Origin: an uncultured Gammaproteobacteria bacterium
GTDB taxonomy: Bacteria; Patescibacteriota; Patescibacteriia; SG8-24
Reading direction: 5' to 3'
Length of the DNA stretch: 64,000 bases
Assembly: GCA_964486995.1 (NCBI GenBank)
Contig: CAZAOV010000002.1
Location: 26,559-90,558 of the forward strand
Position 1 is the first letter of the stretch. Every line of letters begins with the position of its first letter. Shown piece after piece: positions 39,111 through 59,541 of the stretch. The notes beneath the pieces are model-generated. The model made no database searches. It was not told the origin of the DNA and worked only from the letters and a program-made list of their open reading frames with translations. The translations under genes were made by a program, and so were the position numbers.

Positions 39111-39236
39111 AGTGTAGAAGTATAGATGTATAGAAGTATAGATGTGTAGAAGTTTAGGAGACCCACCCATTTCATCAGACGTCTTGCGTAAGTGCGCGGG
39201 TCTGCTACACCCCTACACTACTACACATCTACACTG
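39111..39236. repeat. family-A palindromic repeat element, copy 1 (GTRTAGRRG heptamer arrays flanking a conserved core)
   Basis: Left arm of tandem gtgtagaag/gtatagatg units. Core ...gacgtcttgcgtaagtgcgcgggtctgctacac. Right arm of inverted ctacac units. Confidence 0.7.
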
Positions 39237-39244
39237 TTTGATGA

Positions 39245-40306
39245 CTAGAACTGATTTAAGAACCTAAAATCGCTCTTGTAGAGCACTCGAATATCATCAA
39301 TCATAATCCCCGACCGCATCATCATTGTTCGCTCCACGCCCCAGCCGAACGCTAGCGCGCTGTACTCTTCTGGATCAACGCCGCCCGCGGTCAGAACGTT
39401 CGGATGCAGTATGCCCGCACCGCCGAGCTCCAGCCAACCTTCTTTGCAGAGTCGGCACTTGCCGCCATGTTCGTTCTTGCCCGAGCCATTGCAGATACCA
39501 CAGCTGATGTCGATTTCAAAACTGGGTTCAGTAAAGCGGAAATGAAACGGTCGCAGTCGCGTGTGGCGACCTTCGCCAAAATATTCGCGCGCAAAATGAT
39601 CCAAAATTCCTTTCAGGTGGGTCACAGATACGTTGCGGTCCACGAGCAAACCCTCGAACTGGTGAAACATCGGCGTGTGAGACACGTCAATCTGCCGCCG
39701 GAAAGTCTTAGAGATGTTCATCATGCGAATCGGCAATTTGCCCTTCTTCAATTCGCGTGCGCTACCCGAAGTGGTGTGCGGCGTCAGCACCATCTTGCCG
39801 AATTTGCCACTCACCGGCGCATCAATAAAAAACGTTTCCCATTCGTCGCGCGCCGGATGGTCGGGCGGCATGTTCAAAGACTCAAACGCATACCAATCCC
39901 ACTCGACTTCCGGATGGCGCACGCGCGTGAAACCGATGCGACTAAAAATATCCACGATGTCGCGCATGGCCTGGGTGACCGGATGCATGTGACCTTCCTC
40001 CGGTGCGATGCCGGGCACGGTCACGTCGATGCTGTCGGTCTCAACGAGCGACGCATATTCAGCTTGGCGCAACTCTCGACGGCGCCTCTCTACGGCCGCG
40101 CGAATTTCTTCTTTGTGCTGATTCGCCAACTGCCCGACTTCTTTACGTTCCTCAGCAGACAACGAGCCCAGTTTCTTCATGGCCTGACTAAACTCGCTCT
40201 TACGACCCAGATGGACAGTTTCGACCTCGTCTAAAGTACGGCTGTCCGTTGCTTCGGACACCGCTTTTAGGATTCGGTCTCGGATTTCATTCAGTTCTTG
40301 TTTCAT
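39245..40306 (-). CDS. pheS: phenylalanine--tRNA ligase alpha subunit
   Basis: Class II core with the FRRQ...HTPMFHQFEGL motifs. Confidence 0.95.
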   Translation of the reverse strand: MKQELNEIRDRILKAVSEATDSRTLDEVETVHLGRKSEFSQAMKKLGSLSAEERKEVGQLANQHKEEIRAAVERRRRELRQAEYASLVETDSIDVTVPGIAPEEGHMHPVTQAMRDIVDIFSRIGFTRVRHPEVEWDWYAFESLNMPPDHPARDEWETFFIDAPVSGKFGKMVLTPHTTSGSARELKKGKLPIRMMNISKTFRRQIDVSHTPMFHQFEGLLVDRNVSVTHLKGILDHFAREYFGEGRHTRLRPFHFRFTEPSFEIDISCGICNGSGKNEHGGKCRLCKEGWLELGGAGILHPNVLTAGGVDPEEYSALAFGWGVERTMMMRSGIMIDDIRVLYKSDFRFLNQF

Positions 40307-40317
40307 AGTCTAGTATC

Positions 40318-40399
40318 GTATCGGCAGAGCTTGTCTCTAGCCATCGTTAATATCTTTTTACTAAATTTCGGTTGGGCAGGGGCGAGCTCTGCCGCTACC
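40318..40399. repeat. family-B palindromic repeat element, copy 2
   Basis: Arms ggcagagcttgtctctagcc and gggcaggggcgagctctgcc. Located 12 nt upstream of the pheS start and 5 nt after the rseP stop. Confidence 0.65.
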
Positions 40400-40403
40400 G
40401 TTT

Positions 40404-41525
40404 CTAGCCAGTGAAAACATTGGTTATCGACTGCATAATACGGTCTCCAAACCGCACCACATCGCCGTAAGTCACTACTAACACGAGCAGCATCAGCAAC
40501 GCAAAGCCAACATTATGGATCATGGCCTCAATCTGACGGCTCACCGCGCGACCCCGAATCTTCTCTATAATAAGGAAGAGCAGGCGGCCACCGTCGAGCG
40601 CCGGGAACGGCAAAATATTTAGAATCCCCAAGTTGATTGATAGCAAAGCTATGAACTGCAGCAAGTGCCGCCAACCGTGCTGAGCCACTTCGCCGGCTAC
40701 GACCGCAATGCCGACCGGTCCGGAAATGTCGGCCGGAGCACCTCCACCGGTGAACAAATCACCGAGAATCGTACCGAAAGCTATCAAAATCTGATACGTG
40801 AACGAGCCGGTCATCCATAGACCTTGAATCGGCGCCATATATACCGGATACGCCACCATGCCAGTCTTCATCAGGCTCACGCCGATTCCGGGTTTACCGG
40901 TTATTTCCAAAATCGCCGGCGCAACCGAAACCTCTACCTGCTCCCCCTCCCTTTCCAGCACCAAATCCATCGGCACGTTACCGCGACTGCCGGTGAGCAA
41001 GGCAAATCCTTCGATATTGGTCATGCGTTCGTCTTCGGCTAGCCAGATGACATCACCTATCTCGATCCCTGCTGCGGCAGCCGGAGTGCCCTCAAGCACG
41101 TTCACCACATGCAACTTCTCTTGGCTCACTGTCGCGTAAGACGGAACCGGCGATTCGTCATCGACAATCTGCGGTAGGCCAAACATATAGCCAATCGAAA
41201 ACAGCACCCAGGCCAAAATAAAATTCATCACCACACCAGCTACGATAACTTGCATGCGCTGCCAGCCGCTCTTAGCGCTGAAACTATCCGAATCTTTGGC
41301 GTTTTCCCCTCCTTCACCTTTGAGGCGTACGAAACCGCCGATTGGAATGGCGTTAATCGACCAAATCATGTCGTTATGTTTTTTGCCCCAGAGCCGAGGC
41401 GGGAAACCAAAGCCGAACTCCTCGACTTTGATACCTGCGCGACGAGCCATAAAAAAATGCCCGCATTCATGCGCGAACACGATTACTGAGAGGACGATAA
41501 CGAAGGTTAAGATGGTGGTGAACAT
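40404..41525 (-). CDS. rseP: RIP metalloprotease RseP-like (M50 site-2 protease)
   Basis: HECGHFFMARRAG (HExxH) in TM1, a PDZ-like middle region, and polytopic topology. Confidence 0.85.
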   Translation of the reverse strand: MFTTILTFVIVLSVIVFAHECGHFFMARRAGIKVEEFGFGFPPRLWGKKHNDMIWSINAIPIGGFVRLKGEGGENAKDSDSFSAKSGWQRMQVIVAGVVMNFILAWVLFSIGYMFGLPQIVDDESPVPSYATVSQEKLHVVNVLEGTPAAAAGIEIGDVIWLAEDERMTNIEGFALLTGSRGNVPMDLVLEREGEQVEVSVAPAILEITGKPGIGVSLMKTGMVAYPVYMAPIQGLWMTGSFTYQILIAFGTILGDLFTGGGAPADISGPVGIAVVAGEVAQHGWRHLLQFIALLSINLGILNILPFPALDGGRLLFLIIEKIRGRAVSRQIEAMIHNVGFALLMLLVLVVTYGDVVRFGDRIMQSITNVFTG

Positions 41526-41572
41526 AGGTTGGGGTGGGAATTATTTATGGTGTGGGGGATATAGGGTTGTCG

Positions 41573-41680
41573 GGGTGTAGAGGTATAGAGGTGTAGAGGT
41601 GTAGGAGATCCGCACACTCACGAAAAACGCCTAGTGCAAATGAGGGGGTCTCCTACGCCTCTGCTTCTACACTTCTATAC
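41573..41680. repeat. family-A palindromic repeat element, copy 2
   Basis: Left arm gtgtagaggtatagaggtgtagaggtgtaggagatcc, a core containing ctagtgcaaatga, then inverted units. Confidence 0.7.
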
Positions 41681-41683
41681 TTT

Positions 41684-42520
41684 TTACCCGACCGCAGCAG
41701 CGCGCACGTTTACTTCGCTGCCGAGCCATTCCTGGGCGAGCGCGACGAATTGTTCTGTGCGGTCGCTGACATAGAACTGATGTTGGCCACGGGTACGCAA
41801 CGAAGCGTCTAGTTCTGGATGCTGCTGAAGATACGCGGCGAGTTCAGCCACTGCATCATGCGCCGGGTCAACCAGGGTGACGCTCTCCCCCATCGCCTGA
41901 CCGATAACGGTACGCAGGAACGGATAGTGCGTACAGCCCAGAATAAGCGTATCTATACGTGATAGTTGTAGCGGGCGCAAGTATTCTCTGGCAATCGACG
42001 CGGTTTCTTTGCGGGCGGCCCAACCTTCCTCAACGAGTGGTACAAACAATGGACAGGGCGTCGAAAAAACTTTGGTCCGCGGAGCGAGTCGTTTCATCTT
42101 GCGTTCATAGATGCCGGAACCGACCGTGCCACGAGTGCCGACCACACCAACATGCCCTTTGGTGACCGCAGCCGCGCGCTTTACCGCTGGCATTACTACC
42201 TCGAACACCGGCACGTCAACGTTGCGACGCAAGGTCTCGACGCCGTGCGCGGACACGGTGTTGCAGGCGACCATGATAACTTTTGCGCCTTTGTCGAGCA
42301 AAAACTCCGCATTCTCCAGCGCATATTTTTGAATCAGCTCGCGGCTCTTGATGCCATAGGGAGTGCGTGCAGTATCGCCAAAATAAACCACCCGGCGACC
42401 GGGTAGTTGTCTTAGCACTTCCTTAGCGACGGTCAGGCCTCCGAGACCTGAGTCAAATATACCTATCATATTGCGCTGAAATTGCCCTTCAATAATGGCA
42501 GTTTGGGAGCTAAGAATCAA
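41684..42520 (-). CDS. murI: glutamate racemase
   Basis: IGIFDSGLGGLTV and GCTHYP motifs. Confidence 0.9.
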   Translation of the reverse strand: MILSSQTAIIEGQFQRNMIGIFDSGLGGLTVAKEVLRQLPGRRVVYFGDTARTPYGIKSRELIQKYALENAEFLLDKGAKVIMVACNTVSAHGVETLRRNVDVPVFEVVMPAVKRAAAVTKGHVGVVGTRGTVGSGIYERKMKRLAPRTKVFSTPCPLFVPLVEEGWAARKETASIAREYLRPLQLSRIDTLILGCTHYPFLRTVIGQAMGESVTLVDPAHDAVAELAAYLQQHPELDASLRTRGQHQFYVSDRTEQFVALAQEWLGSEVNVRAAAVG

Positions 42521-42545
42521 GGGTTAAGAGTTGGGGTGTTTTAAG

Positions 42546-42643
42546 AGTATAGAAGTATAGGAGTGTAGGGGTGTAGGATACTCGCTCATTTGCACTAGAC
42601 GTCATGCGTAAGCGGGTCTACTACACTTCCATGCTTCTACGAG
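42546..42643. repeat. family-A palindromic repeat element, copy 3 (inverted relative to copy 2)
   Basis: Its core tcatttgcactag is the reverse complement of ctagtgcaaatga in copy 2. The two copies bracket murI. Confidence 0.7.
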
Positions 42644-42689
42644 GTATCGGACATTTCGTGTGGGTAAATAGTCTCTTTTTCTTCTAGTT

Positions 42690-43750
42690 CTAGCGCGTTT
42701 CTGGAACATTTATGGTCATATGACCATAAATGGAAGCAAAAAGAGGTGCGACAAGTGCGGCAAACCCATGCAGCGATGGGGTCAAACCAAGACCGGAAAG
42801 CAGCGCTGGAAATGCAGACCCTGTTCCAAGACCGGCACGAGAGTCAGGCACGATGTGACCGCCGGACATAGGCAACGCCTGTTTCTGAACTGGGTGCGCA
42901 GCAAGGAGTCCGTGGCCGACACGGCAAGGAAGGCAGGTGTGACCGCACGAACCGCGCACCGCTGGTTCGCCCCGTTCTGGAAAGCCCCGCCGCGGACCTG
43001 CAGCCGAATCGCTGCACGCATCCTCGTTGTCGACGCGGTGTCGGTCGTGAAGCACGAGGCGGTGGCGCTGCTCGCCGGCGACCCCGGACCTCCGGAACCG
43101 GTCGGCTGGGAGTTCGCCGCGCGCGAGTGCCACGAGTCCTGGCGGTCGTTCTTCCTCGGCCTTCGCAGCCGCGGGGCGGACCCCGGGTTCGTGGTCTGCG
43201 ACGGCCAGAAGGGCCTGCTCAAGGCGGCCCGGGAAGTCTTTCCACATGCGGCGGTCCAGCGTTGCGTTGTCCACGTGCACCGCCTGGCCATGGCCTGGCT
43301 GATGCGAAAACCGAAAACCGCGGCGGGCCGCGAGCTGCGGCCAATCGTCTCCGCGCTGCTCCTGGTGCGCACGCCGGAAGATCAGGACACATGGCTGGAG
43401 TCACTGCGCTCGCGGGAAATCAGGCACGCCGAGTTCCTGAAGGAGAGGACGTACGGCGAGAACGGATGGTGGTACACGCACCGGAAGCTGAGGGCGGTCA
43501 GGTCGCTGCTGCGCAACGCCGCACCCGACCTGTTCCGCTACGTCGACGACCCTCCGGTGCCGAGGACCTCGAACCACGTCGAGGGAGGGCTGAACAGCCG
43601 AATCAAGGAGCTGCTGCGCTCGCATCGGGGGATATCAAAAAGCCAGCGCATGGCGCTGGTGTGCTGGTACCTGGAGTCGAGACGGGAGGAGAAAAAACCC
43701 CACACGAAATGTCCGATAGCTCGTTTTGCCATACGCTTCTTATGATGCAC
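42690..43750 (+). mobile_element. IS1-family insertion sequence (limits approximate), anomalously GC-rich
   Basis: Segment of about 68-70% GC inside roughly 52% GC DNA. Encodes a fused zinc-ribbon/HTH/DDE transposase. Terminal inverted repeats could not be defined by eye. Confidence 0.55.
42720..43745 (+). CDS. IS1-family transposase (fused InsAB-like single ORF)
   Basis: N-terminal CxxC...CxxC zinc ribbon and HTH. FVVCDGQKGL matches the IS1 MTDGWPLY region. SNHVEGGLNSRIKELLRSHRGISKS matches the IS1 [24 protein letters not shown] region. Confidence 0.7.
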   Translation: MTINGSKKRCDKCGKPMQRWGQTKTGKQRWKCRPCSKTGTRVRHDVTAGHRQRLFLNWVRSKESVADTARKAGVTARTAHRWFAPFWKAPPRTCSRIAARILVVDAVSVVKHEAVALLAGDPGPPEPVGWEFAARECHESWRSFFLGLRSRGADPGFVVCDGQKGLLKAAREVFPHAAVQRCVVHVHRLAMAWLMRKPKTAAGRELRPIVSALLLVRTPEDQDTWLESLRSREIRHAEFLKERTYGENGWWYTHRKLRAVRSLLRNAAPDLFRYVDDPPVPRTSNHVEGGLNSRIKELLRSHRGISKSQRMALVCWYLESRREEKKPHTKCPIARFAIRFL

Positions 43751-43912
43751 TCTCCATGGGAAGCGTGTCTAGTATATGGGGTACAGTCCAATACCATTTT
43801 TTCACGTCATTGACAACGCAGTATACATATTATCCACAATTCAAACCTGTTTTGATTTGTGGATAAAAAAACCCGCTAATCACGGATATTTATTGTCTCG
43901 ACCACCTAAATT

Positions 43913-44140
43913 CTATCGAAAATATGCATCTACCGGTACACGGGAAAAGAAAGTATAAGCCACCACCCCTAGTACCACCAGAACGTGCAAAACCCTTTTC
44001 CCGGTTTTCACCATGCTAATCTTTGGCTTTTTGCTGGCGGACGCGGCCACATGACGGGCGGCTTCACAGCAGTTTTGTTTTCGCATTTTGTTTCCTTCTA
44101 GATGTCTATTTTCATTATACCAAGTTATCCACATATCCAC
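43913..44140 (-). CDS. doubtful small ORF inside the DnaA-box region
   Basis: 75-aa ORF with one hydrophobic segment. No RBS, and it overlaps the DnaA boxes. Confidence 0.15.
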   Translation of the reverse strand: MDMWITWYNENRHLEGNKMRKQNCCEAARHVAASASKKPKISMVKTGKRVLHVLVVLGVVAYTFFSRVPVDAYFR

Positions 44141-44220
44141 AAGTATCTAACCTATGATGATATTTTATAAAAAAGGTCAATACCCCTAGTAAATAATTGA
44201 TTATTGCTCTGTAGATAAAC

Positions 44221-44251
44221 AAAAACTCCGCTTTTTAAAGACGGAGTTTTT
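44221..44251. terminator. rho-independent terminator hairpin (aaaaactccg-ctttttaaaga-cggagttttt)
   Basis: Perfect 10-bp stem with flanking A/T runs, downstream of the mutase gene. Confidence 0.6.
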
Positions 44252-44278
44252 GATCCAATTTAGTAGTTATCCACAACC

Positions 44279-45652
44279 TTATCCACGAATGATTTTTAGC
44301 AGTTCATCGCGATGTATTTTCATATTTTCCTCATCCTTGGCTTCCAGATTCAGTCGGATTTTAGGTTCCGTATTCGATGCCCGAACACTGAACCACCAGT
44401 CCCCTTCCGGCTGTTCTGGATTCATGAATTCCATGCGTACACCGTCGATTCTAATCACGTTTGAGGCCTCACCTGCATACTTTTCCTCGAGCGCCTTAAA
44501 TACTGCTTCTTTATCTGCGACTTCGGAGTTAATCTCACCAGAATGAAAATACCGTAGAAGGGGCGCCACGAGTTCAGATAACGGCTTCCCGGTCTCGGAA
44601 ATAAGCTGCATAAACAACAACATCACATAATCAGAGGATTCCGCACCACAAAACTCACGGAAATAAAAATGATTAGACAGCTCACCAGCAAAAACAGCGT
44701 TAACTTCGCGCATATGAGGCTTAATCAAGCCATGTCCAACGCGAGTCATAACCGGCTTTCCTCCAGCCGCCTCAATCTCCTCAACCGTGGCCATGCTCTC
44801 GCGAACATCATACAAAACAGCTTCACCCTGATTATCACGCAACACTTCGCTAGCAATCAAAGCCGTAATAAAATCGCCGCGCACGGTCTTGCCTTTCTCA
44901 TCGACCAATCCGATTCGATCTCCGTCACCATCAAAAGCCACGCCCAAATCCGCACCAGAATCAACCACTTTCAGCTTTAGTGCATCTAACGTCTTCTCCT
45001 TGAGCGGATTTGCCTCGTGGTTCGGAAACGTGCCGTCCAGCTCCCGGTAAAGCACCTCGTATTCACAGCCGGCAATCTTTGACAGCACGTCATCGATAAT
45101 AATTCCCTCCATGCCATTTCCGGTATCTACCACCACTTTCATCGGTTTTATTTTGCTCACGTCAGCGTCGGAAAACAGCTTCTTTAAATAATCATCTCGG
45201 ATATTTTTTTCGCTCAATGAGCCATTATTTTCAACCGGCTCATATGGACCGGCCAACGCCAAATCGCGTATGTCATCCATGCCATTTGAACCACCAATCG
45301 GCAACGCATCACCGAGACAAATCTTTACGCCATTATATTCGCTCGGGTTGTGCGAGGCTGTCACCATCACCCCGGCTTCGTGCTCCGCATACTGGCAAGC
45401 CGCAAAATAAATCATCGGCGTGGTAACCATGCCAACATCAACCACATCGCTTCCCTGCGACATGATTCCTTTGGCGAGTGCTTCGAACAGCTCCGGCGTA
45501 GTCGAGCGCATGTCTTTTCCGACCGCAATCACCTTGGCATCGGTGAATTTAACGATTGCTTGGCCAATGCGATAAGCACCATCAGTATCAAGCTGCTCGG
45601 GAGATAAACCTCGGATATCGTAGGCTTTAAAGATAGAACCGTCTAAAGGCAT
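44279..45652 (-). CDS. phosphomannomutase/phosphoglucomutase (alpha-D-phosphohexomutase family)
   Basis: Active-site loop TASHNPSEYNGVK, metal-binding DGDGDR, and sugar-binding loop. Confidence 0.9.
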   Translation of the reverse strand: MPLDGSIFKAYDIRGLSPEQLDTDGAYRIGQAIVKFTDAKVIAVGKDMRSTTPELFEALAKGIMSQGSDVVDVGMVTTPMIYFAACQYAEHEAGVMVTASHNPSEYNGVKICLGDALPIGGSNGMDDIRDLALAGPYEPVENNGSLSEKNIRDDYLKKLFSDADVSKIKPMKVVVDTGNGMEGIIIDDVLSKIAGCEYEVLYRELDGTFPNHEANPLKEKTLDALKLKVVDSGADLGVAFDGDGDRIGLVDEKGKTVRGDFITALIASEVLRDNQGEAVLYDVRESMATVEEIEAAGGKPVMTRVGHGLIKPHMREVNAVFAGELSNHFYFREFCGAESSDYVMLLFMQLISETGKPLSELVAPLLRYFHSGEINSEVADKEAVFKALEEKYAGEASNVIRIDGVRMEFMNPEQPEGDWWFSVRASNTEPKIRLNLEAKDEENMKIHRDELLKIIRG

Positions 45653-45979
45653 ATACGTTGGTGGTTAATTGCGATTTTTCTAATTTAACTGGTTGGAGGG
45701 ATGGAGGCGCAAAAAAAATATAAAGCATATAAGGACAGTAGAGCTGGCGGATAAATGAAGACGCTCTGCCGCCCTTCTGCTCCCAGACACTTGTAAACTA
45801 TACACCCCTCACCACCAGACTGAATCTCTGGGGGTAACTAGACTTGACGCAAAATCCAAAATTCGCCTAAATTATCCCCATTTTTCGTTGACTTTAGCCT
45901 TATTTTTACCTATAATGAAGGTAGGTATAAGTGTAATCACTAAACTGCGGCTAGGCAAATTTTCGTTTATTGAGCGAAG

Positions 45980-46570
45980 TTGCGCCGCATCATGAAATTA
46001 TATATGACCGGACTAACAATAGCTGCCGCGGTCGTTCTCGGCCTCATCCTAATCTTGGCAGTGTGGATAATAGCTGTTTACAACAGTTTAATCACACTAC
46101 GTAACCGCACGGACGAAGCCTGGTCCGATATCGACGTTCAGCTCAAACGCCGTTATGACCTGATTCCAAATCTGGTTGAGACCGTTAAGGGTTACGCCTC
46201 ACACGAACGCGAAACCCTGGAGAAAGTCACCCAAGCTCGCAATATGGCGATGAGTGCGGAAGGCAAACACGATAAGGCCGAAGCTGAAAATATGCTTTCC
46301 CAAACTCTGAAATCTTTGTTCGCGGTAGCTGAGAACTACCCGGACCTGAAGGCGTCACAGAACTTCCTCCAACTGCAGGATGACCTGAAAGATACCGAGG
46401 ATAAAATACAAGCTGCGCGCCGTTTCTATAACGCAAACGTCCGGGACTTCAACACAAAGATACAGATTTTCCCAAATAACGTTATCGCCGGTCAGCTAAA
46501 TTTCGAAAAATACGAGTTCTTCGAAATTGAGAACGAAAAGGAGCGCGAGAATGTACAAGTAAAGTTCTAG
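45980..46570 (+). CDS. lemA: LemA family protein
   Basis: N-terminal TM plus a LemA core ([31 protein letters not shown]...YNANVRDFN). Confidence 0.85.
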
Positions 46571-46576: not shown

Positions 46577-46656
46577 TGTAGCGGCAGGGCTTGCTCCTGC
46601 TTATTGAGCCGAGTTCGCGCTTGCAACCGAAAGCAGGGGCAAGCCCTGCCGCTACG
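46577..46656. repeat. family-B palindromic repeat element, copy 3
   Basis: Arms gcggcagggcttgctcctgc and gcaggggcaagccctgccgc. Located 10 nt upstream of the htpX start. Confidence 0.65.
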
Positions 46657-47556: not shown

Positions 47557-47573
47557 CTAAAACGTATAGAAGT

Positions 47574-47673
47574 GTAGGAGTGTAGGGGTGTAGAAGACCA
47601 GCCCACTTACGAATGACGCCCAACGTAAGCGAGCGGGTCTTCTACACTTCTACACCTCTAAACTTCTACACTC
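47574..47673. repeat. family-A palindromic repeat element, copy 4
   Basis: gtatagaagtgtaggagtgtaggggtgtagaagacc ... core acgtaagcgagcgggtcttctacac ... inverted units. Confidence 0.7.
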
Positions 47674-51042: not shown

Positions 51043-52260
51043 ATGTTTAAAAGAATCGGTCTTATAGTTCTGTTTATCGCGGTAACCTTCGCCATCGGTT
51101 TAGGACTGTACTTTATGATCTTTGGGTTGCCCGAAGCAGAGCCAGAAATTCCGCCGGAGGAAATCGTTAACGTTCCACCAACCGGTTTGGAACCGTCGGA
51201 ACCAGCCAAACCGACTGTTCCGCCCGAGGAGCAGGAGGTGGGCCTGCCCCAGCCGCCGGCAGTTTCGCCGATTGCTGATGGTGGCATCACACAAGTTACG
51301 CCAGTTACGCCCGCTTCGACCAGAAGCGCCATGCTAAACGATTCCGGAGAGTTGAGCTACTACAACCGTAACGACGGAAAGTTCTATCGCGTTAAAGACG
51401 ACGGAACGATTATGTCGCTGTCGGATGAAGTTTTCTATAACGTGAACGAAGCCACTTTCAATCCAAGCGGCGATAGCGCTATCCTGGAATATCCAGACGG
51501 CTCTAACATCTACTACGATTTCACCACCGATACCCAAGTCACCCTGCCCCAGCATTGGGAAGATTTCGATTTCAGCCCACAAGGCAATCAAATTGCCGCC
51601 AAGAGTGTGGGCTTGGACCCGTCGAACAGGTTCGTTATCGTATCTAATCCAGACGGCTCGGGTGCAAAGCCAGTCCAAGAGATGGGCCAGAACCAAGATG
51701 AAGTTATCGTTGACTGGTCACCAAACAATCAGATAGTAGCCACGGCCACCACCGGACGAAAGCTGGGCGTCGATCGGCACGAAGTGTATTTCATCGGTCA
51801 GCACCACGAAAACTTCCGCTCCCTGATTGTAGAGGGTTTGAATTTCCAGCCGAAATGGTCACCGTCTGGAGAGCAGCTCCTGTACTCGTCAGCAAGCAGC
51901 ACCTCGGATTGGAAACCGCAGCTTTGGATTGTTGACGGGTCTGGTGATGACATCGGTCTGAACCGTCGTTCCATCAGTGTGGAAACCTGGGCCGAAAAAT
52001 GTACGTTCGCTGACCAAGAAACTCTGTACTGCGCCGTACCGCGCGAACTACCGCGCGGCGCCGGTCTGCAACCACGTATTGCAGACAACACTCCGGACGA
52101 TATCGTGAAAATTGATATGGTGACTGGTCTGCAGACTTCCGTGGCAATTCCAGAAGGCTCACATACCATCGACTCCATCATGCTGACTCCGGACGGAAAA
52201 AATCTCTATTTCACCGACAAGGGCACCGGTCAGCTCAATCAGATAAAATTAAGACCGTAA
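51043..52260 (+). CDS. membrane-anchored TolB-like beta-propeller protein
   Basis: Signal anchor, Pro-rich linker (PEAEPEIPPEE...), then repeated WSP/DGS blade-like segments typical of TolB/PD40 propellers. Confidence 0.55.
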   Translation: MFKRIGLIVLFIAVTFAIGLGLYFMIFGLPEAEPEIPPEEIVNVPPTGLEPSEPAKPTVPPEEQEVGLPQPPAVSPIADGGITQVTPVTPASTRSAMLNDSGELSYYNRNDGKFYRVKDDGTIMSLSDEVFYNVNEATFNPSGDSAILEYPDGSNIYYDFTTDTQVTLPQHWEDFDFSPQGNQIAAKSVGLDPSNRFVIVSNPDGSGAKPVQEMGQNQDEVIVDWSPNNQIVATATTGRKLGVDRHEVYFIGQHHENFRSLIVEGLNFQPKWSPSGEQLLYSSASSTSDWKPQLWIVDGSGDDIGLNRRSISVETWAEKCTFADQETLYCAVPRELPRGAGLQPRIADNTPDDIVKIDMVTGLQTSVAIPEGSHTIDSIMLTPDGKNLYFTDKGTGQLNQIKLRP

Positions 52261-52268
52261 CTTTTTCG

Positions 52269-52339
52269 GTAGCTGCACAGCTTGTCTGCGCCCGTCAATA
52301 ATCTTAAAGTGCTGGGCGGAGACAAGCTCCGCAGCTACG
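52269..52339. repeat. family-B palindromic repeat element, copy 4
   Basis: Arms ggtagctgcacagcttgtctgcgccc and gggcggagacaagctccgcagctac. Located 9 nt upstream of the DsbA-like start. Confidence 0.6.
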
Positions 52340-52347
52340 ACGATACT

Positions 52348-53010
52348 ATGAAGCGTTCCCCCCTGTTCCTTGGCATCCTAACGCTGGCAGCAATCCTGCT
52401 GCTCATGGTGTATGGCATTTCAGCCATCGCACCGCTGTTTGAGGTAAAAGAAGAGGAGCCGAAAGCAGAACAGCCGCAAATAGCGACACCCACTATTGAT
52501 TTCGGCAACCCGAGCTTCGGCCCAAGTAACGCTGACCTGACCATTGTGGTATATGGCGACTATCAGTGCCCGTCGTGTGCCGGTTTTGATGCCACACTGG
52601 TGAAAGTGTTATCTGACTTCCCAAACGTCAGGCTGGTCTGGAAGGATATTCCAAACACCAGTCGTTACGCCGAATCCAGGGACGCGGCCATCGCCGGACG
52701 CTGCGCCAAAGAACAGGGCGCTTTCTGGGAGTATCATGATATTTTAATGGCTAATCGAGATTCGCTAACCGAAACCAACTATCCGATATTCGCGATGCAA
52801 CTTGGATTAGATTCAGAACAGTTCCTCTCTTGCCTGCAAGACCGCACACCAGACGCACTGATTCAACGAGACATCGATGAAGCTATCGCTATCGGCGTCA
52901 ACGCCTCACCTTATGTGTTTATTGGCAATCAACCCTACGCCGGCAGTATGCCCGAAGAACGTCTGCGAACAATAATCGAGTCCGAACTGGATCGTCTCGG
53001 AACTCCATAA
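52348..53010 (+). CDS. DsbA-like thiol:disulfide oxidoreductase (thioredoxin fold), membrane-anchored
   Basis: CPSC active-site motif after a signal anchor, with a thioredoxin-like core. Confidence 0.7.
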   Translation: MKRSPLFLGILTLAAILLLMVYGISAIAPLFEVKEEEPKAEQPQIATPTIDFGNPSFGPSNADLTIVVYGDYQCPSCAGFDATLVKVLSDFPNVRLVWKDIPNTSRYAESRDAAIAGRCAKEQGAFWEYHDILMANRDSLTETNYPIFAMQLGLDSEQFLSCLQDRTPDALIQRDIDEAIAIGVNASPYVFIGNQPYAGSMPEERLRTIIESELDRLGTP

Positions 53011-53026
53011 AAAACAAGCCGACCAC

Positions 53027-53800
53027 ATGCCGGACAAGAAAAACAAAACGAAAAAATGGACCGGCGCTGGAGCGACCGCTTTGGTGGCTTTTTATTTACT
53101 TATGCCTCTCTCCGCAAACGCGTTTTGTTTGATAACCGAAGGCACCAGCTGCGGCCCTGAATGTGAAGAAGCGGAAGATTGCGGGTTCTTTGAAGACAGT
53201 GCGACAGGACGTTGTGAAATGACCGTTGATGCGGAAACTGAAACATCGGATCTGTTCTGTCGCGACGCCGCAGAGTTGGTGGAAGACGCCGCGGTGGCGG
53301 AGGCGGCCGCCGAGGCAACCGACCAAGCAATACAAGAAAGACGAGAGCGAGAGGCACGAATCGCTGGTCAGGACGCCCTGCCAGACCTTTCGGTGAGCAT
53401 TCCGGGCGTTCAGTTTTCTGAAATCAGGAAGACAAAGTCCGATGATGGGATGTACTACATCATAGAAATACCCTGGATGGCTGACTATATTATCGGCGTA
53501 TATCGCTATTCGGTTTTCATCGGCAGTATTCTGTCCGTAGTAATGATAATGATCGGCGGAATTCAATGGCTTACAGCCGGCGGCGACGCCAGCCGAGTGA
53601 CTAACGCCAAAAACCGAATCAACAATGCCGTAGTTGGGCTAGTGCTCATATTGGGATCGTTCTTGGTACTAAATACCATTAACCCGAGGCTGACCATGCT
53701 AAATCCACTACAGGTAAAAGTGGTAAACGAGGAACGCTACAACGTTCGTGAGGTACTGCAGACGACCACCGAAGACACCGGCAACCCGCTAGAGCTATAA
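53027..53800 (+). CDS. secreted Cys-rich protein with a VirB2/TrbC-like (T4SS-pilin-like) double-TM hairpin domain (split form, part 1)
   Basis: Signal peptide, a 9-Cys N-terminal module, then the conserved IPWMADYIIGVYRYSVFIGS...GGIQWLTAGGDASRV...VGLVLILGSFLVLNTINP two-helix domain shared with the next two fused paralogs. Confidence 0.55.
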   Translation: MPDKKNKTKKWTGAGATALVAFYLLMPLSANAFCLITEGTSCGPECEEAEDCGFFEDSATGRCEMTVDAETETSDLFCRDAAELVEDAAVAEAAAEATDQAIQERREREARIAGQDALPDLSVSIPGVQFSEIRKTKSDDGMYYIIEIPWMADYIIGVYRYSVFIGSILSVVMIMIGGIQWLTAGGDASRVTNAKNRINNAVVGLVLILGSFLVLNTINPRLTMLNPLQVKVVNEERYNVREVLQTTTEDTGNPLEL

Positions 53801-53805
53801 ATAAT

Positions 53806-54768
53806 ATGCAGTTTATAAAGAAAAATCTCTACGCCATAGCAGTCGCGATTATCGTAGGCGTGTTTACTATCGTAATCTCGCTGTTGCCGCTAGTTCCCAC
53901 TTCCAACCCAACCCAATTTGACGTAGCCGAAGCCGAAGCCAGGTTAGCGACGCTGGTTTCTGACGTTGGTTCAGAAAACTATAATTGCCCTTTCGAGTCT
54001 GTAAATAACATCACTGTTGGGGTAAGGCATCCGCCACGCGTTAGCGGCCAGCGCACGCAGATTTTCGTTCGTGAAGTGCTGAATATAATTCCAGCGGACT
54101 CCGACGTCCGTGAAAAGATCCTTCTGGTTGCTGACCTGGCGATTCGCTGTAAAGTATTTTTTGGCAGCTGCGGACGCTCGGCCGGCGCCGTTTATGCCTT
54201 AGCCGGCATCGGGGATGATGATGACCCGCCACCCACACCAAGAGAATCCAATTGTATGTTCTCAGAAGATGGCTGCAATCTAGATATCAGAAAAAAGAGA
54301 GTGCCTGAAACGGAAGAGGGTATGTATCTACGCGGCAATCTTTCGCGGATAATTATCGGGCAAAACTGCAACTCTCCAAGTGACTCCCGACGAAGAAATT
54401 GCTTCGATTCCGGACCGCAAGCCAAAAGACACGTTAGCGAGCAAATCAGTCGGTCTTTACAGAATTATCCAAACCGTTGGTCCGACCACCTAGAACCCGG
54501 TGACTGGCTGTATATCTATAACGGCAATTCAACACCCATCGGTTCACATAGCGTCATATTCCTGGGTTGGGAAAACGAGGCGCAGGGCTGGGCTTATATA
54601 TATGAAGGCAACCCGCGCTCATGGCTTGGCCGAGACCATACACCGGTAAACGAACGGCTTCAGGAAACTAGGGTTAGACTGAATCGAGCCTGCCTGAAAA
54701 GCGAGTGCGGCAATTGGTACCCGATTGTTCTGGTATATGACCCGGAATCAGCTGAAATGATTAATTAA
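53806..54768 (+). CDS. membrane-anchored NlpC/P60-CHAP superfamily cysteine-peptidase-like protein (split form, part 2)
   Basis: FFGSCGRSAGAVYALAGI (catalytic-Cys helix), then LEPGDWLYIYNGNSTPIGSHSVIFLGW, which resembles the PGDLVFF...HVGIY pattern. Confidence 0.5.
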   Translation: MQFIKKNLYAIAVAIIVGVFTIVISLLPLVPTSNPTQFDVAEAEARLATLVSDVGSENYNCPFESVNNITVGVRHPPRVSGQRTQIFVREVLNIIPADSDVREKILLVADLAIRCKVFFGSCGRSAGAVYALAGIGDDDDPPPTPRESNCMFSEDGCNLDIRKKRVPETEEGMYLRGNLSRIIIGQNCNSPSDSRRRNCFDSGPQAKRHVSEQISRSLQNYPNRWSDHLEPGDWLYIYNGNSTPIGSHSVIFLGWENEAQGWAYIYEGNPRSWLGRDHTPVNERLQETRVRLNRACLKSECGNWYPIVLVYDPESAEMIN

Positions 54769-54771
54769 CAT

Positions 54772-56226
54772 ATGAATTCATCGCGCACGCGAAAAAATAA
54801 TAATATTCGCCGAATACAAGTTTTTGGTGTCTTGCTTTTGGCCGTGGTAGCGCTCTGGCCAGGCGCCATGCTGGCGGCAGACTGTAGTATCGGTGAAAAC
54901 GACATATTTTGTGCGAGCTGCGAAGTGGGTGACCGTTGTGTCACCGACGGAACCGAACGTGGAACCTGCCAGGTTGTACCCGAAGGAACCGAAGACAGCA
55001 CCGTCTCCGAAGGCGTAGTGATTCGGGCCGGCAATAAAATCTGTACCAACAACGGCACTACGCCGGCCATGTTGCCCTCTTCCGGAGATGGCGATGGGGG
55101 TGGCAGCGGAAATGCTCCCAGCACACCAATCGGCCCGACGTTTGCCGTGAATATCCCCACGGTGCAGATTACGGGAACACAAACATCACAGACCGAAGAC
55201 GGGGAATATTATCAAGTAGACATCCCGTGGATTGCCGATTATATCACCGGCGTTTATCGCTATGCGGTGTTTTTTGGGAGCGTTTTAGCGGCCGTGCTAT
55301 TCATGCTTGCTGGCCTGCAATGGTTAACCGCGGGCGGCAACGCCAGCCGAGTAGGTGCGGCAAAAAAACGTATGGTGGATACCACCATCGGATTGGTGCT
55401 GATTCTCGGTACATTTCTAATTCTAAACACGGTCAATCCTGAATTAACTTCGCTGAGGCCGTTACGCGTAAAAACTGTTCCGCTAGATCCTCTAGAGGTG
55501 GAGATGCACTCGACTACTGTGGCCACAAGCGTTCCCGGCGACAGCACTTATGACGTTCGAAGCGACAGCGGGACGTACGTGGCGCAATATTTTAACGATT
55601 GCCCGTTCGACTTACCGGAATCGCTTAACACTCCGCCTAATTGCGAGGGTCGAAACACGTTTGCTCACCCCACTTGCCGTGAGCGGGTATTTTTCGAGCG
55701 AATTTACCCGATGCTTGAAGGTGACACCAGTCAAAAATACGTCATGGCCATGGAAGCAGCCTGGAAATGCCGAGTAAAGCTTGGTTCCTGCGGTCGTACC
55801 CTTTCAGATCTGGCAGAGTTAGCTCTTTCTGGCCCCAATGCTGAATGTCTACAGCAGGAAAACCGAGGACGTTTCCCGATTGGATGTATGGACACCTACC
55901 GAAGCCGCGCTCAAAACACCACTGTCCGCGGCTGGAATGAGCGCGAGGGAAAAACGAGCGCGGAAATCCTGGACATTCTTCGAACGGAAAATCCGGGATA
56001 TCCAGATAACCTAAACATCGGACCGGGTGCCATCGTCACGTACTACAACGGGAACCCTTCTGCTGGCGGAAGTCACCGTGTTTTTGTCGCCGGCTTCAAC
56101 GAGGAGACGGGCATGGCGCAGTTATTGGAAGGACAGGTCGGCTCACCGCCAACCAGTCGCGATGTATGCATGTCTAGCGTGTGCCGTAGGTATCCGCCAA
56201 TCGGTATTGTTTCATATTTGCGCTAA
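54772..56226 (+). CDS. fused Cys-rich / T4SS-pilin-like double-TM / NlpC-P60-CHAP-like protein (paralog 2)
   Basis: All three modules in one ORF: IPWIADYITGVYRYAVFFGS...LQWLTAGGNASRV, then KLGSCGRT and IVTYYNGNPSAGGSHRVFVAGF. Confidence 0.55.
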   Translation: MNSSRTRKNNNIRRIQVFGVLLLAVVALWPGAMLAADCSIGENDIFCASCEVGDRCVTDGTERGTCQVVPEGTEDSTVSEGVVIRAGNKICTNNGTTPAMLPSSGDGDGGGSGNAPSTPIGPTFAVNIPTVQITGTQTSQTEDGEYYQVDIPWIADYITGVYRYAVFFGSVLAAVLFMLAGLQWLTAGGNASRVGAAKKRMVDTTIGLVLILGTFLILNTVNPELTSLRPLRVKTVPLDPLEVEMHSTTVATSVPGDSTYDVRSDSGTYVAQYFNDCPFDLPESLNTPPNCEGRNTFAHPTCRERVFFERIYPMLEGDTSQKYVMAMEAAWKCRVKLGSCGRTLSDLAELALSGPNAECLQQENRGRFPIGCMDTYRSRAQNTTVRGWNEREGKTSAEILDILRTENPGYPDNLNIGPGAIVTYYNGNPSAGGSHRVFVAGFNEETGMAQLLEGQVGSPPTSRDVCMSSVCRRYPPIGIVSYLR

Positions 56227-57803
56227 TGACGATTCGACGAAATACAATTAGACGCACCCTGTCACTGTCGCTACTTTCGACAATGATTTTCGTGTTTGGA
56301 TCAGTTTTTCCGGTCCGGGCGGACGAGGAATTCATTCTTTCTACCGACGGTAAATGCTGCCCGAATCCGACGTATGACTGTTGCGAAGAGGAGAACCGCT
56401 GCTCGGGCACCGATTGTGGGCCCGAAGAGGTGTCTCCAGCTCCGGGCAGATGCTCCATCACCCGAGACGACAGAGATGCCGAAGTGGTGGGTGAACACAG
56501 CTCTTCATGTCTGACGGTCCAAGGCGAAGAGGTAGAAGGAGAGGAAACGACGCAAGACGCAATTCCGGAAAGCACCGCCCCCGGACCGCCGATAGAACCC
56601 GAGTTGGCTATCAATATACCGACAGTGACTTTCTCCGATGTTCAAGTAACCGCCGGCGAGGGCTATAACTATATCGACATTCCTTGGCTAGCGGACTATA
56701 CGGCCGGAATCTACCGCTATGCGGTGTTTATTGGCAGTGTTTTTGCGGCAGTAATGTTTATGGTTGGCGGCCTACAGTGGCTGACAGCCGGCGGCAACAC
56801 TTCACGAGTCAGCGCAGCGAAGACTAGGATACGCGATTCAATCGTCGGTCTGGTGCTGATACTCGGTTCTTATCTTCTGCTCAACACCATTAACCCCGGA
56901 CTCACTTCCATGCAGCCCTTGCGGGTGAAGGTGGTGCAAAAAGACCCCCTGCGAGTCAGCATGATGACCACTACGGCTAACACTTCTGACCCGGACTCAT
57001 CTAGTGGCGGCGGTGACCGCAGCTTTGGCGGGCGCATGGAGCCGCTCTCCGGCTCATATACGCGAGGAGTTACCGATTGTCCGCTTGACCTGGAAGCGGA
57101 ACCGGCCACGGTTTTACCCAACAGACCCGGAAGATCCAGGGAATTCGCCCAACAAATTGGTGATGTTTATGCCGGCAGTAATGTGCGAGATAAAGTTCTG
57201 CGGATTGCGGAGGCAACGGTTGCTTGCGAAATATATTTTGGTAGTTGCGGCCGTACTGGAGGTACTATTTATGCGCTAGCTGGCGTTTCGGTCGGTGCCG
57301 ACAATACGGGCGATGATCCTTCATGCATTTGGGCCGACAGTGACGCTTGTGGTGGCACTTGGGGTGCGATTGGCGGGCAAGCTAACGTGAACTGGCCTCA
57401 GCTGCGGACTTACCGTACCTGTACCGGCTCCGGCGACAGTCGTAGCTGCAACCGAACCGCTTCCGAGGCAACTGAAGTAGCTCGGGACGATATTACCGGC
57501 GCAGAAGACTACCCTGATTCGCTGGCCAATATCTTGGAGCCGGGTGACATAATGATTATTTATAACGGCAATAGTAGTCCAGCCGGTTCGCACACCATGA
57601 TTTTTATGGGTTGGGATACCGGTGGTTGGGCTCATGTTATAGACGGTTCAGCTCAGCGCTTGGCCGGCTACAGCCGCTATTGCATCAAGGAATCCTGCGG
57701 AAATCAACGTAAACCTCTGCTCTGGGTGCACAAACCGGTCTGCGACAACTTAGGCCGCGGACATCGCTGCGAAGACGACTACGGAAATACCCCAACGGAA
57801 TAA
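56226..57803 (+). CDS. fused Cys-rich / T4SS-pilin-like double-TM / NlpC-P60-CHAP-like protein (paralog 3)
   Basis: IPWLADYTAGIYRYAVFIGS...LQWLTAGGNTSRV, then YFGSCGRTGGTIYALAGV and PGDIMIIYNGNSSPAGSHTMIFMGW. The start overlaps the previous stop. Confidence 0.55.
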   Translation: MTIRRNTIRRTLSLSLLSTMIFVFGSVFPVRADEEFILSTDGKCCPNPTYDCCEEENRCSGTDCGPEEVSPAPGRCSITRDDRDAEVVGEHSSSCLTVQGEEVEGEETTQDAIPESTAPGPPIEPELAINIPTVTFSDVQVTAGEGYNYIDIPWLADYTAGIYRYAVFIGSVFAAVMFMVGGLQWLTAGGNTSRVSAAKTRIRDSIVGLVLILGSYLLLNTINPGLTSMQPLRVKVVQKDPLRVSMMTTTANTSDPDSSSGGGDRSFGGRMEPLSGSYTRGVTDCPLDLEAEPATVLPNRPGRSREFAQQIGDVYAGSNVRDKVLRIAEATVACEIYFGSCGRTGGTIYALAGVSVGADNTGDDPSCIWADSDACGGTWGAIGGQANVNWPQLRTYRTCTGSGDSRSCNRTASEATEVARDDITGAEDYPDSLANILEPGDIMIIYNGNSSPAGSHTMIFMGWDTGGWAHVIDGSAQRLAGYSRYCIKESCGNQRKPLLWVHKPVCDNLGRGHRCEDDYGNTPTE

Positions 57804-58075
57804 TCTCCGGACGAGAAAGAAGGCTAACTGCAAAACCGTCAGACTTGTTTTAAGGCGGCGGCGTATTCGCTCGTTTAGAACAAGTCTGACGGTTTTTTCG
57901 CAGGTGCGTCATTAATAATCCCTTGCCAAAAAACGGCGAGGGGTTTTAGGTATGGTAGGATAGAAGATATTGAGGTGTTTGGAGATGGTGGTATGTTGAG
58001 CGCTTACCCGGCACAAACCCAACATCTCTGAATACCCGTGAACATCTAAACATCGTTCAGCTAAAATACACCTAT

Positions 58076-59443
58076 ATGAGAACCGCTACTCAGATATTCG
58101 TTTGTTCTAAGTGTGATGCGCAGTCGCCGAAATGGACTGGGCAGTGTTTGGAGTGCGGGGGTTGGGGGACGGTAGCGGCAGCGGCACAACAGGCGAGGGG
58201 CGATGAGTCAGGAGCAGAGAGAGGAGCAATTCAGGCTGCCCCCGCAAAAGTTGAGGCGTTCAGCTCCATCAAGACAGAAACCACTCAACGTTCAGAGATT
58301 GGCATTGATGAAATTGATCGGGTGTTTGGCGGTGGAGTTGTGCCGGGGTCGGTGACGCTGATTGGTGGTGAGCCGGGTATTGGTAAGTCGACGATTTGCC
58401 TGCAGATCGCGGGGCGAGTGGCCATTCAGGGCAAGGTGGTTTACGCGTCGGGTGAAGAATCCGGTTCGCAGGTGAAGGGGCGCGCGCAGCGCATTGGCGC
58501 ACCCGCAGACAACCTGCTGTTTCTCGGTAAGACCGAAGTGGAAACAATTATTGCTACTTTGCATCGCGAAAAACCGCTGCTAGCGGTGATTGATTCGGTG
58601 CAGATGCTGCGCTCAGCCGAGATTCCGGCCGAGACCGGTGCAGTGAGTACTATCCGCGGTGCCACAGCCAAGCTCGTGGCTTATGCCAAGTCGTCAGACA
58701 CCCCCCTGCTGCTGGTCGGACACGTGACCAAAGACGGTAATGTGGCCGGACCAAAAACCTTAGAACACCTGGTTGACGCCGTGTTATCTTTCGAAGGGGA
58801 GCGAACCGGACAGCTGAGATTGCTGCGCGTGCTCAAGAACCGCTACGGCTCCACCGACGAGACCGGACTGTTTGAGATGACCGGTGAAGGGCTCAAAGAA
58901 ATCAAAAATCCTTCTGCTTATATGCTGGATGAGCGCGGCGACGCGGCATCTGGGAATGTTGTTTCGTGCATTTTGGAAGGGACGCGTCCTGTACTGGTCG
59001 ACATTCAGGCTCTAGTCACGAAAACTGCGTTCGGCTATCCGACGCGGCGCGCCTCGGGCATGGATCAATCGCGGTTAGAGATGCTAATCGCAGTGCTGGC
59101 CGCGCGCGGCGGAATCGACCTTAGTCAGCACGATGTTTACGTGAACATCGTCGGCGGATTAAAACTAAAAGATCCGTCAATAGATTTAGCGGTTTTGATG
59201 GCGCTTACTTCAGCTCGCAAAGATGAACCGTTCCGCGACATCGCTGTCTGGGGCGAGGTCGGCTTGGGCGGAGAGGTGCGGCCGGTACCGTCAACCGACC
59301 GCCGTATCACTGAAGCCACCAAACTAGGAATCAAAAAAGCGGTCGCCTCTCTGCCAAGAAAGAAAACCGCCATCAAACTTAGTGATGATATTGAGGTCAA
59401 AGATGTTAGGAATGTTAGAGATGCGTTGGGATTGTTGAAGTAG
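58076..59443 (+). CDS. radA: DNA repair protein RadA/Sms
   Basis: N-terminal C4 zinc finger (CSKCDAQSPKWTGQCLECGGWGT), Walker A GGEPGIGKST, KNRYG motif, and a Lon-like C-terminal domain. Confidence 0.9.
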   Translation: MRTATQIFVCSKCDAQSPKWTGQCLECGGWGTVAAAAQQARGDESGAERGAIQAAPAKVEAFSSIKTETTQRSEIGIDEIDRVFGGGVVPGSVTLIGGEPGIGKSTICLQIAGRVAIQGKVVYASGEESGSQVKGRAQRIGAPADNLLFLGKTEVETIIATLHREKPLLAVIDSVQMLRSAEIPAETGAVSTIRGATAKLVAYAKSSDTPLLLVGHVTKDGNVAGPKTLEHLVDAVLSFEGERTGQLRLLRVLKNRYGSTDETGLFEMTGEGLKEIKNPSAYMLDERGDAASGNVVSCILEGTRPVLVDIQALVTKTAFGYPTRRASGMDQSRLEMLIAVLAARGGIDLSQHDVYVNIVGGLKLKDPSIDLAVLMALTSARKDEPFRDIAVWGEVGLGGEVRPVPSTDRRITEATKLGIKKAVASLPRKKTAIKLSDDIEVKDVRNVRDALGLLK

Positions 59444-59453
59444 TTAATAGCAT

Positions 59454-59541
59454 GGAAGTATAGAAGTATAGCGGGTCGCTCTCAGCTGTTTGAGCGCGCG
59501 AACTTCTGAATATTTCCTGCTAAACCTCTACACATCTACAC
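59454..59541. repeat. family-A palindromic repeat element, copy 5 (divergent core)
   Basis: ggaagtatagaagtatagcgggtcgc ... ctctacacatctacac, between the convergent radA and recG. Confidence 0.55.

Follow-up and report, generated by a model that had tools for sequence, protein, structure and literature searches.

Octamer-armed palindromic repeats at gene junctions of a patescibacterial genome resemble REP/MITE-type mobile DNA

What are the palindromic arrays of short tandem units that separate genes in a 64,000-nt stretch of an uncultured bacterium, and are they mobile DNA or RNA genes? The stretch, hereafter the window, covers positions 26,559 to 90,558 of contig CAZAOV010000002.1 (assembly GCA_964486995.1), which is deposited under Gammaproteobacteria and placed by GTDB in the Patescibacteriota; in homologue searches with PheS and RadA, the nearest named relatives were 'Patescibacteria group bacterium' and 'Candidatus Uhrbacteria'. 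A first-pass annotation collected five such loci as Family A and offered two readings: a family like repetitive extragenic palindromic (REP) sequences or miniature inverted-repeat transposable elements (MITEs), or a family of structured small RNAs. Family A is a previously undescribed family, and its members look like selfish mobile DNA of the REP/MITE type, not RNA genes.

The description of five loci in which tandem units of the type GTRTAGRRG are followed by inverse units stands: this 9-letter motif has 22 exact matches in the window, and all 22 lie within the five loci. Dinucleotide-preserving shuffles gave 1.61 +/- 1.27 matches (maximum 6), and none of the 100 reached 22. Likewise, 28 of the 29 window matches to a relaxed two-unit pattern are inside the five loci. 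The unit, called a heptamer in the first-pass annotation, is actually an octamer, because Tandem Repeats Finder (TRF) reports a period of 8 in every arm; the 9-letter motif shares one G with the next unit. Read directly, the five loci contain units such as GTGTAGAA and GTATAGAG and, beyond a central segment, inverse units TTCTACAC. The general plan is therefore (GTnTAGrr)x2-6, then a core hairpin of about 45 nt, and then the inverse units. The elements are 92-127 nt long, have inverted arms and contain no open reading frame (ORF). All five loci proposed earlier were recovered, with the start of copy 4 moved from 47574 to 47564:

39110-39236, core on + (the 'canonical' orientation), copy 1: left arm of 6 octamers at 39112-39159, core at 39160-39203, right arm of 4 units at 39204-39234.
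41575-41680, core inverted (-), copy 2: 4 + 4 units, one right-arm unit with a 2-nt deletion.
42547-42638, core on +, copy 3: 4 left units; right arm degenerate and cut off by the left end of an insertion sequence (IS) at 42639.
47564-47671, core inverted (-), copy 4: 4 + 4 units; the best-preserved hairpin, with 48-nt arms that are 81% complementary.
59450-59541, no orientation, copy 5: an arms-only relative with 2-3 units per arm round a different, terminator-like centre.

Aligned over 36 units, the octamer has the profile G94% T89% (G53/A33/T14) T92% A92% G94% (A67/G25) (A56/G31/T11); that is, it consists of an invariant GTnTAG hexamer and two purine-rich free positions. The third position accounts for the variants GTGTAG (19 units), GTATAG (12) and GTTTAG (5). 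As had been proposed, each locus folds into a long hairpin: the predicted free energies (dG) of copies 1-5 are -45, -62.9, -36.6, -58.5 and -30.7 kcal/mol, with z-scores against shuffled controls of -4.7, -7.9, -3.0, -8.9 and -3.8, and the hairpins are strong on both strands. The number of units varies between copies and between the two arms of copy 1, whose left arm holds an internal duplication of period 16 (TRF), indicating slippage of units or in-situ expansion after insertion. At the variable positions of the unit, agreement between the two arms of one copy is no higher than between units paired at random (0.44 versus 0.45 +/- 0.06). With no such arm-to-arm coordination, the pairing stems from the shared consensus, and not from the upkeep of individual hairpins.

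Are the five loci copies of one element, or merely alike in their arms? The first-pass annotation saw a conserved core in every copy; this is correct for copies 1-4, which share a conserved segment of the type AGACGTCaTGCGTAAG and align with each other across both arms and core in alternating orientation (+, -, +, - for copies 1-4). The core is a decayed palindrome, with GACCCGC...CTTACG on one side of a GACGTC-type centre and CGTAAG...GCGGGTC on the other. When the profile was built leaving out each copy in turn, the omitted core was regained in the window with E = 1.5e-6, 6.9e-8, 3.3e-7 and 1.2e-5, and in all four cases the canonical orientation outscored the reverse, so that the asymmetry of the core is common to all. 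Pairwise core identity is 63-74%. From the leave-one-out recovery, the shared asymmetry and this level of identity, we conclude that copies 1-4 descend from one ancestral element, and that they are old. Copy 5 reaches 17 bits (E 0.004) with a profile of the whole element, through its arms alone; the core-only profile does not find it in the window, and its centre is a different hairpin. The central AGACGTCT of copy 1 equals the 'metbox' consensus of MetJ; this was set aside as a coincidence, being present once per element and not conserved in copies 2 and 4.

Were the elements inserted where they now lie? To answer this, the window was compared with orthologous neighbourhoods of seven syntenic relatives (77-85% marker-protein identity, about 117 kb of non-redundant sequence, cited below by L numbers), in which the gene order clpC-htpX-lemA-pmm-murI-rseP-pheS-pheT and radA-recG is kept. 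Such a comparison of empty sites is one between species and does not concern strain polymorphism. A Family A copy with the core found in the window occurs in none of the seven relatives' neighbourhoods. The comparison of insertion sites that had been suggested thus yields, at species level, orthologous junctions without Family A in all seven; some of these junctions are short and empty (11-28 nt), and the rest hold other hairpin elements. The pheS-pheT gap measures 142 nt in the window versus 28 nt in L123, 18 nt in L126 and 11 nt in L222; the 158-nt murI-rseP gap compares with 48 nt in L221 and with overlapping genes in L222; and the htpX-clpC gap is 151 nt versus 24 nt in L222. When copy 1 is taken out, a pheS-pheT spacer of 19 nt remains, similar to those of the relatives. 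The junction sizes together with this removal identify the Family A elements as insertions: orthologous sites are filled in the window and empty in the other species L123, L126 and L222.

The junctions of the relatives that are not empty contain a variety of hairpins. In L120 (83% PheS identity to the window), the pheS-pheT junction holds at 4848-4960 a different period-8 palindrome of about 130 nt, with units GTGTGAGC/GTATGAGC and a core GTCCAAAGGTG..CACCTTTGGAC. In L221 the same junction carries a GTAGC-headed REP-like doublet, and between radA and recG there are REP-like doublets in L229 and L228 and a single REP-like hairpin in L231. Only one element in the relatives' neighbourhoods has Family A arms: it lies in the htpX-lemA gap of L123 (GCA_018813785.1, 79% PheS identity) at 5056-5138, with arms GTGTAGAG CTGTAGAA ... 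CTCTACAC TTCCTACAC CTCTACA round a different core, GCGGCCAAATAATTGGCCGC. Copy 5 and this element, which combine the same arms with other cores, suggest that the arms are a conserved module and that the core is exchangeable.

Octamer arrays of other kinds were also seen in these neighbourhoods. Upstream of murI, L120 has at 1577-1640 a one-directional array of about seven GCTGTTGA octamers, followed by a terminator-like hairpin, and arrays of octamers, as in L120, seem to be recurrent in the Uhrbacteria-like lineage. In L221, the closest relative, the murI-rseP spacer consists of CTCCTTCC-type octamers (1311-1342), the site of copy 2 in the window; their reverse complement, GGAAGGAG, is Shine-Dalgarno-like.

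All five copies are intergenic, and four of them lie 3-14 nt past a stop codon. Around the copies are four - strand genes (pheT, pheS, rseP and murI), the transposase gene of an IS256/IS1249-type IS, pmm, lemA, htpX, a gene for a clpB/C-type ATPase, radA and recG. The placements given in the first-pass annotation were confirmed: copy 1 separates two - strand genes, lying 10 nt from the stop of pheS and 9 nt from the start of pheT; copies 2 and 3 are mutually inverted and bracket murI, copy 2 beginning 3 nt past the murI stop, upstream of rseP, and copy 3 lying about 25 nt upstream of the murI start; and copy 5 takes up the 109 nt that separate the stops of the convergent radA and recG. Copy 4 begins 7 nt past the htpX stop, upstream of the clpC/clpB-like gene. 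Relative to the flanking transcription, the canonical orientation of the core is the same in copy 2 and opposite in copies 1 and 4.

Is there any sign that the elements function as RNA? In a search of the window against Rfam 15, only two tRNAs reached the gathering score and no Family A copy did; at E<=1 the copies match only eukaryotic microRNA-precursor models, generic hairpin matches of 22-30 bits where 57-107 are needed. RNAalifold found no compensatory pair among the 29 pairs of copies 1-4 (0/29), a test of low power with four sequences; 13 of the 29 pairs are disrupted in one or more copies, and covariation enters the score with an unfavourable term (+2.19). Fold energies of the copies favour neither the transcribed strand nor one orientation of the core, and on this ground a strand-specific RNA function was rejected. 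A scan for intrinsic terminators called none of the Family A copies, and their sense-strand 3' flanks have no T-runs. In the lack of covariation, Rfam match, strand bias and terminator, an RNA gene finds no support; although the covariation test has low power, the RNA-level indicators all point to a decaying DNA palindrome over a conserved RNA. A CRISPR (clustered regularly interspaced short palindromic repeats) array was also considered and rejected, as the units are 8 nt, contiguous without spacers, and mirrored by inverse units.

We therefore lean towards the reading that Family A consists of non-autonomous palindromic intergenic repeats, of the kind of REPs, REP doublets forming hairpins (REPINs) and MITEs, that spread in this lineage of the candidate phyla radiation (CPR) and are now decaying. 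The parts of it that are observed are the homology of the copies, their insertion relative to the relatives, the two orientations, the intergenic and stop-proximal placement and the lack of RNA-type conservation; the dispersed REP/MITE-like palindromic family of the first-pass annotation is upheld by elements that are small, non-coding, intergenic, present in both orientations, homologous and absent from the junctions of relatives. In the proposed course of events, an ancestral element of about 110 nt, with tandem 8-nt GTnTAGrr arms and a core hairpin of about 45 nt centred on GACGTC, would have seeded several gaps between genes in one orientation or the other, most often 3-14 nt past stop codons, and the copies would later have decayed to 63-74% core identity while their arms grew or shrank by slippage of units. 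The copying enzyme would act in trans from a gene at another place in the genome, and probably on a single-stranded hairpin form, like REP-associated tyrosine transposases (RAYTs) or the transposases of IS200/IS605; the GTnTAG hexamer repeated every 8 nt may be the feature recognised by this enzyme or by another protein. Insertions would persist because the hairpin may loop out of the mRNA, keeping stop and start codons near each other, so that operon expression is tolerated. The placement past stop codons could thus reflect either targeting or tolerance of a looped-out hairpin.

Several points weigh against this reading. The copies are old (63-74% identity) and no two of the four cores are nearly identical, so that current activity is unproven. 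The count refers to the 64 kb of the source genome in the window, and includes four core-bearing copies. All five copies lie within 21 kb beside an origin-like region (see below), where random transposition need not cluster. Since the relatives are 77-85% identical in marker proteins, the empty sites are those of a between-species comparison. No Y1/RAYT transposase, TnpB or matching DDE transposase was found among the approximately 50 window ORFs with Pfam and NCBIfam. No target-site duplication in the form of direct repeats is readable at copies 1, 2 and 4 against the relatives' spacers, which are distant and give this comparison low power; mobilisation of the hairpin or single-stranded DNA type (RAYT, IS200/IS605) fits this result but is not proven by it. 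Finally, the sole IS of the window has ends that are unrelated to Family A:

42639-43724, + strand, IS256/IS1249-type IS: complete; its 26-nt terminal inverted repeats (42639-42664 and 43699-43724) match at 96%.

This IS sits in the right arm of copy 3, which it truncates, beside the origin-like region. Its terminal repeat is ACGAGGTATCGGACATTTCGTGTGGG, unrelated to the GTnTAG arrays, and it is therefore left outside Family A; for the same reason, the possibility that Family A is a MITE derived from this adjacent IS was rejected. The transposase ORF (42720-43745) extends through the right terminal repeat.

The window also contains a second palindromic family, here called family B, of GTAGC-headed REP-like inverted doublets of the form GTAGCTGCAGAGCTTGCCTCTGCC ... 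GGCAGAG..GCAGCTAC:

7489-7556, 40318-40398, 46578-46655 and 52269-52338: the four copies of family B in the window.
L221:306-383 and 3633-3708, L229:11388-11454, and L228 at about 1865-1935: family B in relatives.

Family B is widespread in the Uhrbacteria-like lineage and occupies the same kinds of junction as Family A. Its resemblance to a classical REPIN implies that CPR genomes of this lineage may encode a RAYT. In the window, the two families (A and B) follow the order pheT, A, pheS, B, rseP, A, murI, A + IS, ..., lemA, B, htpX, A, clpC, so that nearly every operon junction over about 9 kb beside the probable origin has a hairpin of one or the other.

Apart from mobile DNA, the explanation that survives best, though we consider it unlikely, is that the hairpins would regulate host genes in cis as RNA structures, perhaps recruited from mobile DNA, that stabilise mRNA 3' ends or form barriers to decay, act as transcriptional pause or termination elements between convergent genes, or set relative expression within operons such as pheS-pheT. 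REP sequences act in such ways in enterobacteria, and the position of four copies just past stop codons would suit this role, as would the predicted stability of the transcribed hairpins (dG -28 to -66 kcal/mol). Moreover, the convergent radA-recG junction has some hairpin in every lineage examined (copy 5 in the window, and those of L229, L228 and L231), and pheS-pheT has gained three different hairpins in three lineages. However, pheS-pheT is free of hairpins in three of the seven relatives, and murI-rseP and htpX-clpC are so in others, which indicates that the hairpin is dispensable. Nor do the copies have the properties expected of such structures: there is no sense-strand U-tract signature of a terminator and no call in the terminator scan, compensatory substitutions are absent, and fold strength is not biased to the transcribed strand.

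A bolder alternative widens the family beyond this lineage. It holds that mirrored arrays of GTnTAG octamers would be the recognition module of a putative hairpin-processing transposase or nuclease, or of an iterated-site binder, combined with swappable cores (those of copies 1-4, of copy 5 and of the L123 element); that the same design would be found in unrelated bacteria and in Streptomyces phages; and that these would form a new, widespread class of modular hairpin mobile elements, which here saturates the origin-proximal operon junctions. We regard this as distinctly improbable; the wider searches are described in the following.

A scan of a genome collection used a one-arm pattern of three units, GTRTAGRRGTRTAGRRGTRTAG, which proved too degenerate: at least 119 loci match it, mostly in Nostocales, and none has an inverse arm among the matches listed. 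The arrays of Nostocales and other cyanobacteria (e.g., L010, L015, L051 and L068 of L001-L119) consist of three or more GTRTAGRR units in one direction without an inverse arm, and may be a cyanobacterial class of short tandem repeats. The window has only one HIP1 site, and on this count a cyanobacterial source for it was rejected. A two-arm pattern matched 76 metagenome loci and 18 viral stretches, in which the core profile did not find the core of the window; tblastn found no close relative among the 76 metagenome loci, and they share no genes with the window. These metagenome matches are no evidence that the family has spread, because a huge database yields any palindrome with one matching arm. 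For the viral stretches, controls with permuted units gave 2, 0 and 2 matches versus 18 with the real unit, but a single phage group accounts for 14 of the 18, so that the independent enrichment is modest. Among annotated phages and plasmids, blastn found no match to the window element. In the literature searched, the motif strings retrieved nothing relevant, and no report of REP/REPIN/MITE-type repeats in CPR/Patescibacteria was found.

Through its arms, the whole-element profile reaches octamer-armed hairpins elsewhere at 20-38 bits. One group, the GGAGTKTA family (L145:621-711, L152:573-663, L161:664-770, L189:2158-2250 and L202:203-301), comprises intergenic hairpins with 3-4 octamers per arm and a common core stem AGACGATAGTT/AACTATCGTCT; its hosts are non-CPR metagenome contigs with a GC content of 0.54-0.61 and duplicated paaK genes. 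Another was seen in Rowa-like Streptomyces phages (about 40 kb, GC about 0.62), whose genomes have several palindromes of about 88 nt each, unannotated in GenBank, with GTGTAGAAGTGTAG ... CTACACTTCTACAC ends and a centre containing CCCTATAG:

IMG/VR L204/L207, L214/L217, L210/L218, L209/L219 and L216/L220, and NC_047906.1 at 22934-23059: Rowa-like palindromes.

Like Family A, these two groups, L178/L193 and the viral L212 are period-8 inverted arrays of GT(G/T)TAG-type units round a core hairpin, intergenic and with a dG of -43 to -66 kcal/mol; unlike it, they have unrelated cores and unrelated hosts, namely, paaK-carrying non-CPR contigs and actinophages. The likeness could have arisen by convergence, or could result from the use of an arm motif as the query in a huge database.

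Another possibility is that the arrays are double-stranded binding sites for a DNA-binding protein, tied to the nearby origin, for example through segregation or nucleoid organisation. The origin-like region is marked by a cluster of DnaA boxes at 43830-44287, where four of the window's five perfect TTATCCACA sites and three one-mismatch sites lie within 460 nt. The cluster coincides with a switch in gene strand (- to the left, + from lemA onward), and near 44-46 kb the GC skew passes from negative to about zero or positive. This region is probably a chromosomal origin of replication, and no dnaA gene lies beside it. All five Family A copies lie from about -5 to +16 kb of this cluster, and none in the other 39 kb. 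Operators and centromere-like sites can be iterated repeats of 7-11 bp, and the arms look like iterated protein sites in that five positions of the hexamer are 89-94% conserved over the 36 units while positions 7 and 8 float, with arm-to-arm complementarity not otherwise kept up; in addition, no parS was found in the 64-kb window. We nevertheless hold a binding-site array to be very doubtful. The clustering was noticed post hoc in one 64-kb window, an asymmetric core in two orientations is explained by copying and not by site function, the syntenic relatives are without arrays even in the origin-like neighbourhood, and no candidate binding protein was found.

That the elements are genes for structured small RNAs, the other reading of the first-pass annotation, is highly improbable, since their long stable hairpins and one weak sigma-70-like promoter match within an arm of copy 1 are set against 0/29 compensatory pairs, no Rfam family at gathering thresholds, no terminator, both orientations relative to flanking transcription with no strand bias, and relatives that do without the elements.

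Two further features of the window were noted. A pair of near-identical perfect palindromes of about 40 bp (20513-20551 and 22463-22503; TTATCCCCAGAATAGGTsCC followed by GGsACCTATTCTGGGGATAA) flanks an ABC-transporter gene at 20581-22443, and each half opens with a one-mismatch DnaA-box-like TTATCCCCA. At 53027-57803, two ORFs have weak type IV secretion pilin (PF18895) domains; they belong to a block of uncharacterised + strand genes, from a DsbA-like gene to radA, which is kept in L229 and L231.

What follows if Family A is mobile DNA? Genomes of CPR/Patescibacteria are about 1 Mb and tightly packed, and the filled junctions of the window, where relatives have 0-30 nt, indicate that even reduced genomes of this kind can be colonised by selfish palindromic DNA. 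Spacers close to stop codons act as safe havens that different elements have struck independently. The design of the arms, with a conserved hexamer, two free bases and no coordination between arms, points to recognition of an iterated short motif and not of one hairpin. In practice, elements of this type can break metagenome-assembled genomes and mislead CRISPR or minisatellite finders, and can serve as strain markers.

How, then, does Family A compare with known systems? BOX elements of Streptococcus pneumoniae are modular (boxA-boxBn-boxC), with a central 45-nt boxB that is iterated, and their mobilisation is obscure. Family A is likewise modular and intergenic, with one module tandemly iterated and outer parts that pair into a stem-loop; in contrast to BOX, its iterated 8-nt module forms the arms and its unique module is central, and there is no sequence relationship. 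Bacterial MITEs, such as Correia/NEMIS of Neisseria and ERIC/IRU, are non-coding elements of less than 200 bp with terminal inverted repeats, which lie in intergenic regions and operon junctions, are co-transcribed with adjacent genes, and occupy sites that are filled in one relative and empty in another. Family A resembles them in being small and non-coding, with inverted terminal arms, intergenic or operon-junction insertions, and filled versus empty sites. It differs in having neither a readable target-site duplication nor a parent IS with matching ends in the window, and in that its inverted repeats are arrays resembling microsatellites, in which the two arms differ in their number of units.

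The RAYT gene of a REP system is usually single-copy and flanked by repeats, and REPs are present at tens to hundreds per genome. The REP hairpin is reported to bear at its foot a conserved head, GTAG or GTGG (Nunvar 2010; Ton-Hoang 2012; Messing 2012). As outlined in two accounts, REPINs are inverted doublets of REP sequences that are mobilised by RAYT tyrosine transposases (PMC3337134, PMC3116915). Family A is similar to REPINs in being an intergenic non-coding element of about 100 nt that forms one long imperfect hairpin, is dispersed in both orientations, typically just after genes, lacks a target duplication, and is retained while decaying within a lineage. It is different in that its arms are 2-6 tandem 8-nt units and not a single 20-40-nt REP palindrome with a GTAG head; GTAG is present in only about half of the units (19/36), whereas family B has clean GTAGC heads. 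Unlike REPIN-RAYT systems, it is accompanied by no RAYT among the approximately 50 ORFs of the 64-kb window. Because there is no RAYT, target-site duplication or parent IS in the window, and the arms are not single REPs, we assign Family A to no named family and file it as a new architectural variant of the REP/REPIN/MITE kind.

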